Positions 26,510 through 29,514 of a stretch of 42,950 nt of DNA are shown here, piece after piece (position 1 is the stretch's first letter; each line of letters begins with the position of its first letter). The DNA comes from a virus (taxonomy: Duplodnaviria; Heunggongvirae; Uroviricota; Caudoviricetes). The notes beneath the pieces are model-generated. The model had not been told where the DNA came from and did no database searches. It saw nothing but the letters and a program-made list of their open reading frames with translations. Both the position numbers and the translations under genes were made by a program. The stretch lies in the IMG/VR virus record IMGVR_UViG_2870479586_000005. The stretch is one strand, 5' to 3'.

Positions 26510-27385
26510 CTATGGTTGTTCATCACTCTCTTCTGAAAGTATTTGTACTACTTGTCCACACTCTCCACATACTACGTGTAATTGACTATCTTCTTCGGAC
26601 TTGAAAATCTCACTAACTAAGCTATGACAGTTAGGGCATTTTATCTCGTTATCAAAACCTATGAATTTAAGGAATAAGTTTTGAATTAATGAAACTGCAG
26701 TGCAAGTGAGTATAAGGCAAATTTTAGCGTCAGGAATGTTTTTGTTTGAAGAGTGCACCGTCTCTGCGGAAAAATCCCATGCAGACTCAATCGTTGAGCG
26801 GCAATATTTTCTGAGACTTGAGTTTCGTTTTCCTGCGGCATACAACCCAATAATAATTCGGCAAATATTTTTAAAGTCAGCTGCTTTAATATTTTCTTTT
26901 TTTAATATATCCTCATGAGTTTTATAAAGGTGAGCAGCAAGCTCAACCATGCTCTCTCTACAAGTTAGTCCAATACTTTGAATATCTTCAGGGGCCTTAA
27001 TATTATTCAGAGCAACAGCAGAAGCATTTAACCTCCGGCTAATAGAACGAAGCATATCTATATCTAAAGGTAACTCATCAATAACATGTTTGAAATCATT
27101 GCTATGTCTTGCTTGTAGTCTTTGAGTTATACCCAAATGAAAAGAATATGCTTCATCAGCAGAAAAGAAAAACTCATTTTGAGTGTATAAGTTTAAAGGA
27201 ACGTTTTCACCTTCAGCAACCCACCAGTTACCATCATTTTTTGTTCTGACGTTCCAAATGTTAACCTCAAAACCTAAATCATTAAATGTTTGCTCAACTT
27301 GCATGTTTTTTATGTTTTCTATATTTTGAGTTTTTAAATATTCAGTAATTCTTTTCTCAGCATCGATTCTGTATTCTGGTGTCAT
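26510..27385 (-). CDS. Hypothetical 291-aa protein with a C-terminal zinc ribbon
   Basis: AT-rich gene. Preferred ATG at 27385, with AAGGGA upstream (the track uses a TTG at 27391). C-terminal CPNC-x18-CGEC. An internal RLQARH matches the loose Rx4-6H pattern. A TTAACG-17-TATAAT promoter-like element sits in the 58-nt gap upstream. Confidence 0.6.
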   Translation of the reverse strand: MTPEYRIDAEKRITEYLKTQNIENIKNMQVEQTFNDLGFEVNIWNVRTKNDGNWWVAEGENVPLNLYTQNEFFFSADEAYSFHLGITQRLQARHSNDFKHVIDELPLDIDMLRSISRRLNASAVALNNIKAPEDIQSIGLTCRESMVELAAHLYKTHEDILKKENIKAADFKNICRIIIGLYAAGKRNSSLRKYCRSTIESAWDFSAETVHSSNKNIPDAKICLILTCTAVSLIQNLFLKFIGFDNEIKCPNCHSLVSEIFKSEEDSQLHVVCGECGQVVQILSEESDEQP

Positions 27386-27449
27386 GTGCAATCCCTTTTA
27401 ATAAGATACTAAAAGTAAAAGCGCATTATAGCATAACACATACAATGCG

Positions 27450-27695
27450 TTAATGCGTATGCTTGTGCCCTGTAATGATTTCAAAATGAACGTTTGCATA
27501 CAACTGTTTTTTGATCTGGTTGTATTGCAACAGAATGATTTCCACTGCTCGTTCATAGCTGATCTTCAGTTTAGTTAGCATGTCCGTTCTGTGCCTTTTA
27601 AGTTCATTCTTGCCATACTTAGCCGACTTGAATGCTATTTCTTCTATCACTTTTTTAGTTGGCATATTGGGGCTAGAGTTCCGTTCCTCGCTCAC
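27450..27695 (-). CDS. Hypothetical 81-aa helical protein
   Basis: GTG start with AAGG upstream (alternative ATG at 27665). Lies between hairpin motif B and the 291-aa gene. Confidence 0.4.
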   Translation of the reverse strand: MSEERNSSPNMPTKKVIEEIAFKSAKYGKNELKRHRTDMLTKLKISYERAVEIILLQYNQIKKQLYANVHFEIITGHKHTH

Positions 27696-27729
27696 GGCAG
27701 ACCTTAAGCTCAGTTAGTTCGTCTGCTCC

Positions 27730-27766
27730 GTGCCAGAGCGAACGTTGTAAACACAACATTGCTTTA
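27730..27766 (-). repeat. Conserved hairpin motif, copy B (downstream of the DUF2971 gene)
   Basis: Minus strand: GTTGTGTTTACAACGTTCGCTCT-GGCAC-GGAGCAGAC. About 80 percent identical to copy A by eye, with the same stem-loop geometry. Confidence 0.6.
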
Positions 27767-27862
27767 GTCGACAGGGGCCAATAGGCTACTGCGTACCCTG
27801 TGCTAGAGTAAGTATCAAATAGGTATTATCCATGTATATGACTGCTCGATGATGCATCATAA

Positions 27863-28849
27863 TCACAAACGTTCATGATCAAGACTGTTTTCATCATTAT
27901 TTAAGTCATTAAGCATTTGAAGTGCGTCACGAGTACGTTCATAATTACTTTCAGGGTATAATCTAAACTTCATATTTTCCAAATTAATTAATTTTCTTTT
28001 TAATTTGAAGGAATCGTTAGAAAGTGACATTTCGTAAAAATCAATATCCCCCTGTCTGGATTGTAATGCACTCATAACGGAAAACTTAGCAGATTCTTTG
28101 AACCTCAAACCGAATGTAACATCGCTTAACCGAAATGGTGAGTTCTGTAAACCTTGATTATTAATAACTCGATATTCATTTTCATATTTCCAAGAAGGAG
28201 CTTTGCTGAGAAGAATGACCCTATCAATCTCTTTTTTGGCAGTATTCTTTATATTATCATTGCTGCCAAATAACATATCATGAACTTGTTGAGTTCTAAT
28301 AAATCGATTCCCTTTGTAATCAACTGGATGGATATCTAAAGAGTCATTTTCAGAAGTATCATATCCAATACAAAATCCCTTATGTTGATCAGCATAATGC
28401 GACCACATTAAGGGGCAGTTAAATTTTCTTGCTAATGAAAGAACACCAACCTCATAATTTTTTAGCAAGTATCTTTTAATATAAAAACTGGCGCTAGCAT
28501 AAAAATCATCACCATAATTATCAACATCCCACGAAATATTATCAATTAATTTTCGAGCTTCGCTTTCACCTAGCATTTCAATTTTCTCTAATGTCCTTAG
28601 ACCTTTATATTTAATTTTTTTTGCTGCTTTCGCTAGTTCCTTTTGATGATTTTCTTTTACTAATTTATGAAGGATAGAGTTCAATTCATTGACATTATTG
28701 ATGTCGTTTAACACGGAAGGATTACAATCCAAAGGGTCATTGAATGTTGTTGGATCAGCAAAATACAGTCTATCGCTTACAAGCAAGTCAAGACTATCAA
28801 CACTAAAGCTTTTATATTTATATAATCGAGAGGGAATATTCTGTATCAT
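27863..28849 (-). CDS. DUF2971-family protein
   Basis: ..RLYKYKSF....DRLYFADPTTFNDPLDCNP.. and ..PLMWSHYADQHKGFCIGY.. are the signature blocks of DUF2971 as I recall them. The start is ambiguous: ATG at 28849 or 28903, or the track's TTG at 28942. Confidence 0.7.
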   Translation of the reverse strand: MIQNIPSRLYKYKSFSVDSLDLLVSDRLYFADPTTFNDPLDCNPSVLNDINNVNELNSILHKLVKENHQKELAKAAKKIKYKGLRTLEKIEMLGESEARKLIDNISWDVDNYGDDFYASASFYIKRYLLKNYEVGVLSLARKFNCPLMWSHYADQHKGFCIGYDTSENDSLDIHPVDYKGNRFIRTQQVHDMLFGSNDNIKNTAKKEIDRVILLSKAPSWKYENEYRVINNQGLQNSPFRLSDVTFGLRFKESAKFSVMSALQSRQGDIDFYEMSLSNDSFKLKRKLINLENMKFRLYPESNYERTRDALQMLNDLNNDENSLDHERL

Positions 28850-29514
28850 CACTTTTATCTCATAAATTTTTTTGATATTATCTGCCAATTCTAGCCCCAT
28901 GGGCAATAGCAAAATCGAAAAATACTCTCTACGTAAGGGCAAGCCCTTTCCCCATGGATATTCATCAAATTAAGCGGGTGTACTTAGGTCATATTGACCT
29001 GTTCCTAATTGACGATACACCTCGATGTTCATTAAGCCACTTAGAGTGCTGAGACAGATATGAACTGCAGCTTTTCGCTCACTGCTGCCCTTCAGTAAGC
29101 GAAAAAATGCCTACTCGGTGCCATATACAGTCATGGTTATTAACTACAGGGAATAATTCCACACTGAAATTAAATGTCTGCCTTTTACAGTAGAAATAGT
29201 TTCTCCAGGACACTATCCATTGCCGGGCACAATCACTCGGGGTATAACGATATAAAATATGTTCATGATAGTGCAGGTTCGTATATTAAGTTCAGCAGCG
29301 AAAACATGCCTTACAGGTTTCCGGTTTTGGGAGCGTCGTTACAGGATCCTGCGCATACCGTTCCCATCTGTTGAATTAAAGGTTTCACAGCCTTTGCCGA
29401 TATCGCCTTTTACCTTGCCTGTGATGCGTTCAGTGCTCAGCGTTGTTTACTGTAGCTCTCGGAACTGATTACAGACCGCGTCTTAAAAACCAATCCTTAC
29501 TCTAAAGGGAATTC

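Follow-up and report, generated by a model that had tools for sequence, protein, structure and literature searches.

Does the AT-rich block in this prophage represent one anti-phage module, or does it hold cargo that arrived piece by piece? In the 42,950-nt stretch of viral DNA analysed here (the window), we found that G+C is 0.32–0.36 over positions 26200–29000 as compared to 0.45–0.55 in the flanking phage genes, bearing out the difference in composition that the initial annotation had judged by eye. The block contains three minus-strand ORFs (27863–28942, 27450–27695 and 26510–27391/27385), and the related hairpins, the promoter and the zinc ribbon that had been described with them were each found. 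It lies between an ImmA/201-aa module on one side and an LprI lipoprotein gene on the other. Homology to the backbone of a related E. coli ST131 prophage (L001) stops at 29075 and restarts at 26357, and 455 complete E. coli genomes match the window in the flanks only and carry other cargo between them, as expected from the earlier proposal of foreign cargo at a variable prophage hotspot. Two cargo cassettes, independent of each other and with one gene apiece, make up a short array in this lambdoid prophage hotspot. Each cassette runs in the order H2 motif, own promoter, gene, H1 hairpin, and neighbouring cassettes join through an H1-17 nt-H2 junction. Both are on the minus strand and read the same way as the replication, Q and lysis genes of the related ST131 prophage.

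The boundaries of the cassettes were located by comparing where homology to other loci begins and ends. The 5' end of the first cassette, and of the whole variable block, is an H2-like motif (GGGCAGCAGTGAGCGAAAAGCTGC; 29067–29090, minus strand); ST131 backbone homology ends inside it at 29075, homology to a Serratia cassette starts at 29081, and the fold of 29060–29115 has z = –3.4. At the 3' end of this cassette is H1 hairpin copy B (GTTCGCTC-TGGCAC-GGAGCAGAC; 27721–27744, minus strand; repeat families D3/D8; fold z = –2.2), where Serratia homology ends at 27725. An H2 motif 17 nt after copy B (27680–27703, minus strand) completes the inter-cassette junction, and this H1-17 nt-H2 composite matches unannotated sites in ~198 E. 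coli genomes. The fold of this H2 copy is no better than shuffles, and the same is true of the degenerate H2 copies. Further along there is a remnant 3' half of an H1 hairpin (GGCACAGAACGGAC; 27582–27595, minus strand; repeat family D3; 93% identity to copy A); 17 nt later comes an H2-like motif (27541–27564, minus strand) that forms the 5' end of the second cassette. Homology to Providencia DNA begins within that motif at 27559, and its Providencia counterpart is GCTGCTCTGAGCGAGGAGCG. The second cassette and the whole block end at H1 hairpin copy A (GTTCGCTCT-TGGCAC-AGAGCGGAC; 26334–26358, minus strand), which folds better than shuffles (z = –2.6); ST131 backbone homology resumes at 26357 and Providencia homology ends at 26324. 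The two hairpins are copies of one element. Shuffles of the window gave 0 chance matches to its strict 24-nt pattern. The H1 consensus is GTYCGCTYN-TGGCAC-NRAGCGGAC and the H2 core is GTGAGCGAG. The sequence of the H1 stem is mostly conserved and only its two inner pairs show exchanges, and neither element has a U/T tract, so they are not intrinsic terminators. Overall, homology breakpoints fall at H1/H2 in four independent comparisons. Homology to Serratia, Dickeya and Providencia loci, as well as to the E. coli ST131 backbone, begins and ends at these elements.

The first cassette contains a DUF2971 gene (27863–28849, minus strand, 328 aa). Its start is most likely the ATG at 28849 because homologues are 310–330 aa long; the TTG start, which would give 359 aa, is unlikely. 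A weak promoter-like sequence (TTGCCC-18-GATAAT; 28877–28906, minus strand), found by a consensus scan only with 9/12 matches, lies 5' of the gene and inside the segment conserved in Serratia, where DNA is 85% identical over exactly 29081–27725, from H2 to H1. The family assignment made from the letters alone stands: the protein matches the full Pfam profile PF11185 (positions 1–89) with 43.4 bits (E = 9e-11) against a gathering score of 22 bits, and PF11185 is present in 120/120 homologues among the matches listed. The initial annotation had recognised no named defence system in the block; in contrast, we found that the DUF2971 protein matches the PADLOC PDC-S31 model PDLC04990 (E = 1e-50, 255/259 profile positions) as well as three sister PDC-S31 models, and that it belongs to the same Pfam family as the Aristaios system (PMC11381338). 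For this gene, the suggestion of anti-phage cargo is credible. The nearest folds to its predicted model are DarT DNA ADP-ribosyltransferases, and the model has the ADP-ribosyltransferase (ART) core fold. The motif II Tyr (W149-S-H-Y152, WSHY) and an ExE motif (E223-x-E225, in YENEYR) are invariant in 30 homologues, and no conserved motif I His was found in these proteins. Published work classes DUF2971 as a DarT/AbiGi-like H-Y-E ART and reports poor conservation of motif I His among its members (PMC12522546). The family as a whole is very large. Its members related to this protein occur solo in a Serratia island, a Dickeya ICE and a Citrobacter islet; no conserved partner was found in four other contexts, and family scans of the ORFs neighbouring the gene found no macrodomain antitoxin or antitoxin-like family. 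Homologues also adjoin Type I R-M systems and ride as ICE cargo. Taken alone, the gene is ordinary, one more member of a catalogued candidate defence family. The first cassette most likely encodes a self-contained abortive-infection defence: the protein would be held inactive until infection, perhaps via its large helical insertions, and once activated would ADP-ribosylate nucleic acid or, less likely, protein, shutting down phage gene expression as reported for Aristaios.

The second cassette contains the 291-aa gene (26510–27385, minus strand), a member of an uncharacterised mobile single-gene family whose product is predicted to have an N-terminal alpha/beta domain, a HEPN-like helical bundle and a C-terminal C4 zinc ribbon. 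The promoter proposed for it, TTAACG-17-TATAAT, is found at 27453–27425 (minus strand) with an extended –10 TG, and is conserved in Providencia along with the SD AAGGGA and the ATG. Directly 3' of the stop codon, the inverted repeat I10 folds into a long stem, GGGTGGTTT...AAACCACCC, with a 51-nt loop (26408–26498, minus strand); it lies within the segment common to Providencia, where DNA is 87.7% identical over 27559–26324, from the H2-like motif to H1. We found no variation in the four cysteines of the CPNC...CGEC ribbon (C250, C253, C273 and C276) among 60 relatives with 21–37% identity to the query, in agreement with the first reading of this sequence, and the model places three short strands at 258–283; the match to Zn_Ribbon_TF is weak (E = 2e-4, below cut-off). 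Pfam scans of the 60 family members and PDB-sequence profile searches returned zinc ribbons only and no HEPN family profile. The earlier HEPN suggestion may hold for the fold but fails for the motif. The helical domain of the predicted model appears to resemble HEPN folds structurally, but the RLQARH that had prompted the idea is not the conserved Rx4-6H motif: it is present in the protein, yet H94 varies (H/S/Y/R) even in close homologues and the motif sits in a linker with pLDDT <50, outside the helical domain. The only invariant residues of the bundle in the 60 divergent members are R143 and H211, which are 68 residues apart. Outside the ribbon, ~80 residues are very highly conserved in the family.

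The 291-aa family has no entry of its own in Pfam, PADLOC or NCBIfam, and one source labels a homologue 'predicted transcriptional regulator'. Homologues are found in attC-type cassette arrays of the marine bacteria Stutzerimonas, Aliivibrio and Marinobacter, and the repeats that flank them in three loci (L011, L015 and L020) carry R''/R' core sites. An Mrr Type IV enzyme adjoins the homologue in the second-closest non-prophage relative, MADS or DRT genes are present in some other loci, and many neighbourhoods hold housekeeping genes. In most loci the G+C of the homologue is below that of its flanks. Because it is widespread, strongly conserved, outside Pfam, PADLOC and NCBIfam, and borne by integrons and prophage hotspots, this family is a well-defined candidate for functional testing. 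As a member of this highly mobile and unannotated family (~290 aa), the protein in the window would, we tentatively propose, most likely be a further effector or defence protein that acts on its own. Its N-terminal domain and its ribbon might bind a nucleic acid or some phage cue, and an activity, possibly RNA cleavage, might come from the HEPN-like bundle with its invariant R143 and H211.

Between the two genes, the 81-aa ORF (27450–27695, minus strand) had been read as a gene but is not a conserved one; it is a frame that stays open across a stack of junction elements and into the leader of the 291-aa cassette. It has one homologue cluster among 5.8 billion and no family matches in domain and family scans. 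A 1-nt indel at ~27677 shifts its N-terminus in 99%-identical copies. In the homologous Providencia DNA, an indel and an in-frame stop interrupt the frame, the 3' part of which is there non-coding leader. The ORF reflects a gene-less H2...H1 remnant that, along with the leader of the second cassette, reads open for 81 codons by chance. The three ORFs also do not travel as one unit. In 33 loci from other genomes, there were 0 cases of an 81-aa or DUF2971 homologue within 8 kb of the 291-aa homologue, no conserved neighbour of the 291-aa family was found in the loci examined, and the family was never found beside the DUF2971 homologues in their Serratia, Dickeya and Citrobacter contexts. The trio recurs only in two contigs of the same prophage lineage (L037 and L038), and the claim of a single three-gene module is not supported.

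A co-adapted defence operon, in which an ART toxin and a zinc-ribbon sensor would be connected by the 81-aa product as adaptor or antitoxin, would account for three adjacent ORFs that read in the same direction and are kept together in L037 and L038. These two contigs, however, belong to the same prophage lineage (~99% DNA identity), co-occurrence is absent elsewhere, and the bounded cassette of each gene is common separately to Serratia/Dickeya or to Providencia; in addition, the 291-aa gene has its own conserved promoter, and the frame of the middle ORF is shifted in near-identical copies and broken in Providencia. The operon is already largely refuted, and we regard it as very improbable. 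It is also improbable, though less so, that the DUF2971 protein, instead of acting against phages, is an ADP-ribosylating toxin of the virulence or interbacterial type. About 18% of DUF2971 proteins are predicted secreted effectors, including some from enteric pathogens (PMC12522546); on the other hand, our scans show no secretion-associated domain or partner, the PADLOC candidate family that the protein matches was built on defence-island context, the gene sits in a prophage hotspot and has homologues beside Type I R-M and on ICE cargo, and the sole experimentally tested DUF2971 protein is an Abi system. For the 291-aa protein a role other than defence is a real if minority possibility: it might be a transcription or translation regulator with a TFIIB/RPB9-like zinc ribbon, an anti-defence or superinfection-exclusion factor of benefit to the prophage, or an addiction toxin. 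Its sole sequence-level matches are zinc ribbons of the transcription/translation-factor type, the regulator label and the lack of a PADLOC match point the same way, and many of its neighbourhoods are housekeeping regions or plain integron arrays, whose cassettes have many functions. Against this, the ~80 conserved residues outside the ribbon suggest an enzyme or a precise interaction surface, the gene rides in a hotspot and beside elements dominated by defence genes, and the modelled bundle is HEPN-like; none of these points is decisive.

The same boundary elements raise the question of what H1 and H2 do. H1 is found in at least 120 viral contigs, where it separates conserved backbone genes from variable low-GC cargo in which defence genes abound. 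The flanks of 81 H1 copies fall into 53 clusters upstream and 34 downstream, and two of the downstream clusters hold 41/81 copies. Downstream there are tail-fibre-assembly or Ren-like genes at fixed distances; upstream, the cargo includes a Type I REase, HerA, ThsB, PD-T7-1, PD-T7-5, Tmn, DarT, a pAgo-associated nuclease and several PDC families. H1 and H2 are probably the sites where unrelated mobile elements exchange cargo, most likely by recombination across their short conserved sequences. Any recombination at such sequences would leave precise boundaries, so these do not establish a dedicated mechanism. Because the orientation of H1 follows the backbone gene and not the cargo gene, H1 could instead be a backbone-side RNA element. 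H1 and H2 would then be ordinary transcript-end stabilisers, processing sites or terminator-like hairpins with no role in exchange, and breakpoints would coincide with them as the sole conserved sequence. This account, which we think possible but somewhat doubtful, draws on the fixed orientation of H1 and its constant spacing of +62 or +98 nt from the backbone gene's 3' end, as opposed to the cargo gene, on the conserved sequence of its stem and on H1/H2 having no associated recombinase. It fits less well with the range of unrelated backbone genes that the elements abut (tail fibre assembly, Ren-like, gpD, DinI and the 201-aa gene), with cassettes bounded alike outside phages (in the Serratia island, the Dickeya ICE and the Providencia chromosome), with the missing U/T tract or with the stacking of gene-less junction remnants.

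Taken together, these data indicate that the block is, on balance, probably two separately acquired single-gene cassettes, one with a DarT-like DUF2971 defence candidate and the other with the 291-aa zinc-ribbon protein, with conserved elements at the boundaries of each. One pair of short conserved elements delimits two cargo genes that are unrelated, in both cases within a few bases, and this pair recurs at cargo/backbone junctions beside many known defence systems. If cargo does exchange at H1/H2, this would address a question open in recent hotspot studies, namely how one defence system can give way to another quickly and cleanly with no pseudogene scars left behind, and the elements would serve as a cheap sequence marker for cargo, and hence for new defence candidates, in enterobacterial prophages. 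A bolder reading, which we put forward only as a conjecture, is that H1/H2 form an undescribed enterobacterial cassette system, with H2 5' and H1 3'. Its modules, each with a promoter and one or a few genes, would be swapped as discrete units among lambdoid, P2-like and e14/Rac-type prophages, ICEs, genomic islands and chromosomal islets, and would stack into arrays joined by H1-17 nt-H2 junctions; the 291-aa family would supply a new single-gene defence protein whose HEPN-like core is non-canonical.

Among known systems, the closest to the first cassette is Aristaios, a validated single-gene DUF2971 Abi system from a Lactococcus plasmid (PMC11381338) that blocks phage transcription and protein production (PMC11381338, PMC13064643, PMC12967558). 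The two proteins have PF11185, a similar size (316 vs 328 aa) and a predicted ADP-ribosyltransferase fold in common, and each is encoded by a solo gene without a partner on a mobile element. Aristaios is, however, from a Gram-positive plasmid and not an enterobacterial prophage, the link is at the level of the Pfam family, and its mechanism is not certainly transferable. PDC-S31 is likewise a single-gene candidate; it is a computational candidate only and we found no mention of it in the literature searched, so membership says nothing on mechanism. The DUF2971 protein may work like DarT, the ssDNA thymidine ADP-ribosyltransferase of DarTG, but it differs from DarT in its large helical insertions, in having no significant sequence similarity and in that motif I His is not evident. 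We rejected membership in DarTG, since there is no adjacent DarG macrodomain antitoxin and the neighbours differ in every other context. In comparison to HEPN toxins and Abi proteins (such as HEPN-MNT 5yep, 7ae2 and 8xdj), the 291-aa protein has no conserved Rx4-6H, its R143 and H211 are on different helices, it has neither a HEPN profile match nor an MNT partner, and it carries in addition an N-terminal domain and a zinc ribbon, neither of which is a HEPN feature.

At the level of the whole block, morons and the defence hotspots of P2 (Z/fun and tin/old) and P4 (PMC9122126, PMC13586616) are similar in that autonomous low-G+C promoter-gene units lie between conserved phage genes, are swapped rapidly and are enriched in defence; the P2/P4 studies define hotspots via flanking core genes and mention no boundary hairpin, palindrome or terminator (PMC9122126, PMC13586616). 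Boundary motifs are known from T4-type phages, in which PeSLs (promoter-early stem-loop elements) are short conserved motifs that flank variable ORFs in hyperplastic regions and are breakpoints of insertions, deletions and replacements (PMC2839356, PMC4122927). H1/H2 also flank variable ORFs and coincide with breakpoints. In contrast to PeSLs, in which the motif contains an early promoter and a terminator stem-loop and copies recombine to circles, H1/H2 have another sequence, are two distinct motifs at opposite cassette ends with the promoter outside the repeat, and occur in other groups (temperate lambdoid, P2-like and e14/Rac-type prophages, ICEs and islands). Integron cassettes resemble H1/H2 cassettes in having a single promoter-proximal ORF between imperfect palindromes and in stacking head-to-tail with composite junctions, and in marine bacteria the 291-aa family itself takes the form of a cassette flanked by attC sites. 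We rejected H1 and H2 as attC sites, since both lack the R'' (RYYYAAC) and R' (GTTRRRY) core sites, and unlike integron cassettes each cassette in the window has its own promoter. If the conjectured system is real, H1/H2 cassettes would be a phage-borne counterpart of integron cassettes and of T4 PeSL modules, and would provide a mechanism for scar-free swapping of defence genes at hotspots.

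In the window, G+C content is 0.32–0.36 at 26.2–29.0 kb as compared to 0.45–0.55 in the surrounding phage genes, so the AT-rich stretch described in the initial annotation is real, and the three minus-strand ORFs proposed within it are all present: a DUF2971 gene (27863–28849), an 81-aa ORF (27450–27695) and a 291-aa gene (26510–27385). The backbone is a lambdoid prophage, approximately 97% identical to one that is found in many E. coli strains, ST131 among them. In the orientation of the window, the lysis genes, Q, DUF1364/DUF1367, an ImmA metallopeptidase (+) and a 201-aa membrane protein (+) are followed by the cargo (–), an LprI lipoprotein (+), an ORF6N protein (Pfam assignments) and the replication genes. 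When we searched 5,426 complete E. coli genomes, we found that 455 match the flanks of the block only and that none contains the block itself; GenBank phage records have no near match to it either. In the common ST131 version of the hotspot, the place of the block is taken by one unrelated hypothetical gene (232 aa). These data agree with the earlier proposal that the block is foreign cargo in a variable prophage hotspot.

The surroundings of the cargo are themselves variable. An 81-nt direct repeat (26004–26084 and 30507–30587; 90% identical) comprises the 3' end of the 201-aa membrane-protein gene and a second copy downstream of the LprI gene, and a remnant of it is also present in the ST131-type prophage locus L001 (9332–9406). 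This duplication around cargo and LprI, together with the remnant, suggests that the segment was itself inserted or exchanged by recombination within the repeat sequence. The ImmA/IrrE M78 metallopeptidase (PADLOC CapP-like, E = 2e-25) and the 201-aa protein, which has a C-terminal membrane segment and belongs to phrog_5346, form a module at 24982–26085 (+) in which no HTH partner was detected. This pair is absent from L037, a contig of the same lineage where the cargo block joins the 213-aa/DUF1367/Q region directly, and thus the module is variable too.

The initial annotation had treated the three ORFs as one uncharacterised defence module, which is not supported. In 33 loci from other species, tblastn found no homologue of the 81-aa ORF or the DUF2971 protein within 8 kb of a 291-aa homologue; outside the window, the trio occurs only in the same-lineage contigs L037 and L038, so that, this one lineage aside, the lack of co-occurrence that the initial annotation had named as refuting its proposal is what we observe. 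All-against-all clustering of neighbours in the same 33 loci gave no conserved partner of the 291-aa gene, and the small ORFs upstream of 291-aa homologues in other loci are unrelated to one another. The 81-aa ORF also does not hold up as a gene. It has a single homologue cluster among 5.8 billion, found only in L037 and L038 at approximately 99% DNA identity to the window, where a 1-nt indel six codons past the GTG start shifts the N-terminus to another frame and the ORF is called as 102 aa. Its last ~36 codons are homologous to Providencia DNA upstream of the 291-aa gene, which has another indel and an in-frame stop in this part, whereas the 291-aa gene keeps its promoter, Shine-Dalgarno sequence and start codon there. 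Because of the frameshift in L037 and L038 and the indel and stop in Providencia, the 81-aa ORF is best read as non-coding junction and leader DNA. Taken together, the block is two independent single-gene cassettes and a spurious ORF.

The repeated hairpins that the initial annotation had correctly seen, motifs A and B, are copies of one element, H1 (GTYCGCTYN-TGGCAC-NRAGCGGAC; copy A at 26334–26358, copy B at 27721–27744), located at the cassette 3' end. The H1 pattern appears in 0 of 100 shuffles of the window, and copy A forms a more stable fold than shuffled sequence (z = –2.6). A second boundary motif, H2, is located at the cassette 5' end (best form GTCCGCTGTGAGCGAGAAGCGGAC, core GTGAGCGAG). 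H2 lies 17 nt beyond H1 in the window; among the 14 viral copies with H2, the same spacing is seen in 10. Degenerate H2 copies fold no better than shuffles, so H2 is better called a conserved sequence motif than a proven hairpin. On the minus strand, an H2-like motif (29090–29067) precedes the DUF2971 gene, after which come H1 copy B (27744–27721), 17 nt and H2 (27703–27680). Following ~85 nt, an H1 remnant (27595–27582), 17 nt and an H2-like motif (27564–27541) lead into the promoter and the 291-aa gene, and a long stem (26498–26408) and H1 copy A (26358–26334) lie beyond it.

These boundaries are homology breakpoints in four independent comparisons. Homology to the ST131 backbone stops at 29075, inside H2, and restarts at 26357, inside H1. 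A Serratia genomic island is 85% identical over exactly 29081–27725 and carries, at the two ends of this stretch, an H2 and an H1-like sequence of its own; the copy in a Dickeya ICE ends at an H1-like hairpin and then H2; and a Providencia chromosomal islet is 87.7% identical over 27559–26324. That the boundaries coincide in all four alignments indicates that each gene is a discrete mobile H2-promoter-gene-H1 unit, moved between unrelated contexts.

We found the strict 24-nt H1 pattern in at least 120 IMG/VR contigs and analyzed the flanks of 81 H1 copies in 80 loci from these contigs, read in TGGCAC orientation. Upstream of H1, the 400-nt flanks group into 53 sequence clusters, and downstream into 34, two of which contain 41 of the 81 copies. 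At a fixed +62 or +98 nt downstream is the 3' end of a convergent conserved gene, which encodes a tail fibre assembly protein in 21 of the 80 loci, a Ren-like exclusion protein in 17 and, more rarely, a gpD-type tail protein, a tail fibre protein or DinI. G+C content is lower upstream of H1 (0.40 vs 0.47 downstream), where there are 52 distinct nearest genes. These include Type I REase, HerA, ThsB/TIR, PD-T7-1, PD-T7-5, Tmn, a pAgo-associated nuclease and DarT, as well as the PADLOC candidate families PDC-S07, S39, S49 and S66 and a distant DUF2971 relative. In E. coli prophages of the Rac/Qin and e14 type, too, H1/H2 copies flank hypothetical cargo genes.

Several individual loci show the same elements. 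The 232-aa hypothetical protein WP_000536231.1 (L001 6449–7147), which has no match in NCBIfam, is the alternative hotspot cargo in hundreds of E. coli genomes, and H1 and H2 delimit its gene in L001 just as they delimit the window cargo. Multi-cassette arrays like that of the window, with consecutive hypothetical cargo genes each separated by H1 and/or H2, are present in Rac/Qin-type and e14-type prophages of other E. coli strains (L002 3826–3850 and 5042–5066; L003 2147–2171, 3325–3391, 5000–5066 and 6215–6238). In e14 of K-12 MG1655, the genes lit (defence) and intE (integrase) are separated at their 3' ends by a degenerate H2-like palindrome, GTCCGCCGCTCGCTTAAAGTGGAC (L171 4597–4620), for which the K-12 record has no annotation. 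The K-12 sRNA C0293, at the e14 cargo boundary, was rejected as a candidate since its sequence is unrelated.

Exchange of cargo by recombination across the short conserved sequences H1 and H2 would be the simplest mechanism, although the two elements may instead have a role purely at the RNA level. The orientation of H1 tracks the backbone gene (57 vs 16) and not the cargo gene (43 vs 33), and its stem is mostly conserved in sequence, with C-G/T-A exchange in the two inner pairs only. An Rfam scan of 24000–31000 returned nothing at E ≤ 1; the hairpins therefore do not belong to any curated RNA family. Intrinsic terminators were rejected because there is no T tract 3' of either H1 copy and the scan found no minus-strand terminator. 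The invariant TGGCAC loop suggested a sigma-54 promoter, which was rejected on inspection of the sequence since no TTGC is present at the correct spacing. A lambda boxA/nut site, suggested by CGCTCTT inside H1, was rejected by inference, as the motif recurs many times per element and is buried in the stem.

The first cassette gene was correctly assigned to the DUF2971 family (Pfam, E = 9e-11, above the gathering score). Because its homologues are 310–330 aa long, the gene almost certainly starts at the ATG at 28849 (328 aa), not at the TTG of the 359-aa ORF. The initial annotation recognized no named defence system here; however, the protein matches the PADLOC candidate defence family PDC-S31 (E = 1e-50, 255 of 259 profile positions) and also PHROG 1762. 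Residues K11, F36-N-D-P-L-D41, W149-S-H-Y152, H156 and Y222-E-x-E225-x-R227 are invariant in 30 homologues with identity down to 36%. A published bioinformatic classification places DUF2971 among the DarT/AbiGi-like ARTs of the H-Y-E clade and describes for it a motif II tyrosine that is strictly conserved and ExE as motif III (PMC12522546). Aristaios, a single-gene lactococcal abortive-infection system, consists of one DUF2971 protein, for which an ADP-ribosyltransferase fold is predicted (PMC11381338), and disturbs phage transcription and protein production (PMC13064643, PMC12967558). The closest homologues elsewhere are likewise solo genes, found beside Type I R-M HsdR, RadC and a resolvase in Serratia, in the cargo region of an ICE in Dickeya and in an IS-flanked islet in Citrobacter. 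In contrast to DarTG, where the DarT toxin is paired with the macrodomain antitoxin DarG, the DUF2971 cassette lacks such a partner; a search near the gene found no macrodomain antitoxin, and thus it is not a DarTG system. The cassette belongs to a catalogued defence family with one experimentally validated member, and the best-supported reading is that the protein is a self-contained Aristaios-like abortive-infection ART, for which we infer activity, target and trigger. In the viral contigs L122 (4065–4844) and L051, the cargo gene just upstream of an H1 hairpin that adjoins a tail-fibre gene encodes a distant DUF2971 relative (30% identity over 128 aa), and DUF2971 genes thus recur as H1-associated cargo in other phages.

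The 291-aa gene starts at the ATG at 27385, with an AAGGGA Shine-Dalgarno sequence ahead of it, and the promoter-like TTAACG-17-TATAAT reported earlier is found at 27453–27425 with an extended –10 TG. There are 306 close homologues (~289 aa, ≥58% identical) in Enterobacterales, Vibrio, Shewanella, Pseudomonas and Burkholderia, more distant relatives in Bacteroidota (~50% identical) and Firmicutes (~33%), and 512 representatives at 50% clustering in an exhaustive profile search. Nothing but the zinc ribbon was recognized when the query was searched in Pfam, PADLOC, PHROGs and NCBIfam, when 60 divergent members were searched in Pfam and PADLOC, or when the family was searched against PDB sequences. 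The predicted model (pLDDT 75) consists of an N-terminal helix and four-stranded sheet (residues 1–68), a poorly predicted linker (87–108), a well-predicted helical bundle (110–241) and a three-stranded zinc ribbon, and has no match in a viral structure library at E ≤ 0.001. The C-terminal ribbon (CxxC...CxxC) is as originally described, all four cysteines being invariant, along with Y67, H83, G85, R143 and H211, in the 60 members (21–37% identity). In contrast, RLQARH, which lies in the linker and had been put forward as a loose HEPN-like Rx4-6H pattern, is rejected as a HEPN motif: its H varies even among close homologues and the defining Rx4-6H is absent. The 291-aa family is truly unannotated and is a good candidate for testing.

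In some remote relatives (P0278, P0308, P0379 and P0265), the C-terminus is replaced or extended by SEC-C motifs, an AIG2/GGACT domain or a recombinase-type ribbon. Rugutis, a lactococcal defence protein encoded by a single gene, has likewise been described as a SEC-C-motif protein without structural match (PMC11381338), and this shared motif may reflect a relationship. The long stem directly after the 291-aa stop (26408–26498, –) has 9-bp perfect arms (GGGTGGTTT / AAACCACCC) and a 51-nt loop, and is inside the segment conserved with Providencia.

The 291-aa family is also mobile in other settings. In Stutzerimonas (L015 7392–8946), Aliivibrio (L011 5334–6454) and Marinobacter (L020 7887–8864), the homologue lies between repeated 80–130-nt elements with attC-type ends (...YTAACAA... 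and ...GTTAGGC / GCGTTA), so it is an integron-type cassette there, a claim confined to these three loci in which a repeat search found attC-like arrays. The L015 cassette also holds a 128-aa ORF, and group II introns adjoin the homologue in three other loci (L010, L016 and L017). In most loci the G+C content of the 291-aa gene is below that of its flanks. In Symbiopectobacterium, the homologue is divergently oriented beside the gene for an Mrr Type IV restriction enzyme, and other loci have MADS, DRT or Type ISP genes, IS110 transposases or plain housekeeping genes; we claim no defence enrichment from these mixed neighbourhoods, for which the aggregate scans give family counts only. Phage-defence genes have been demonstrated among integron cassettes of unknown function (bioRxiv 10.1101/2024.07.02.601719), which supports, rather than proves, a defence role of the 291-aa family.

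We consider the conserved H2/H1 boundary architecture, which the initial annotation barely touched, to be the most interesting result; it opens the exchange of hotspot cargo to concrete tests. Neither of the two main papers on the defence hotspots of P2/P4 mentions a hairpin, palindrome or terminator, and the architecture appears to be undescribed in the searchable literature; the nearest published concept is the PeSL, known from T4-type phages (PMC2839356, PMC4122927).
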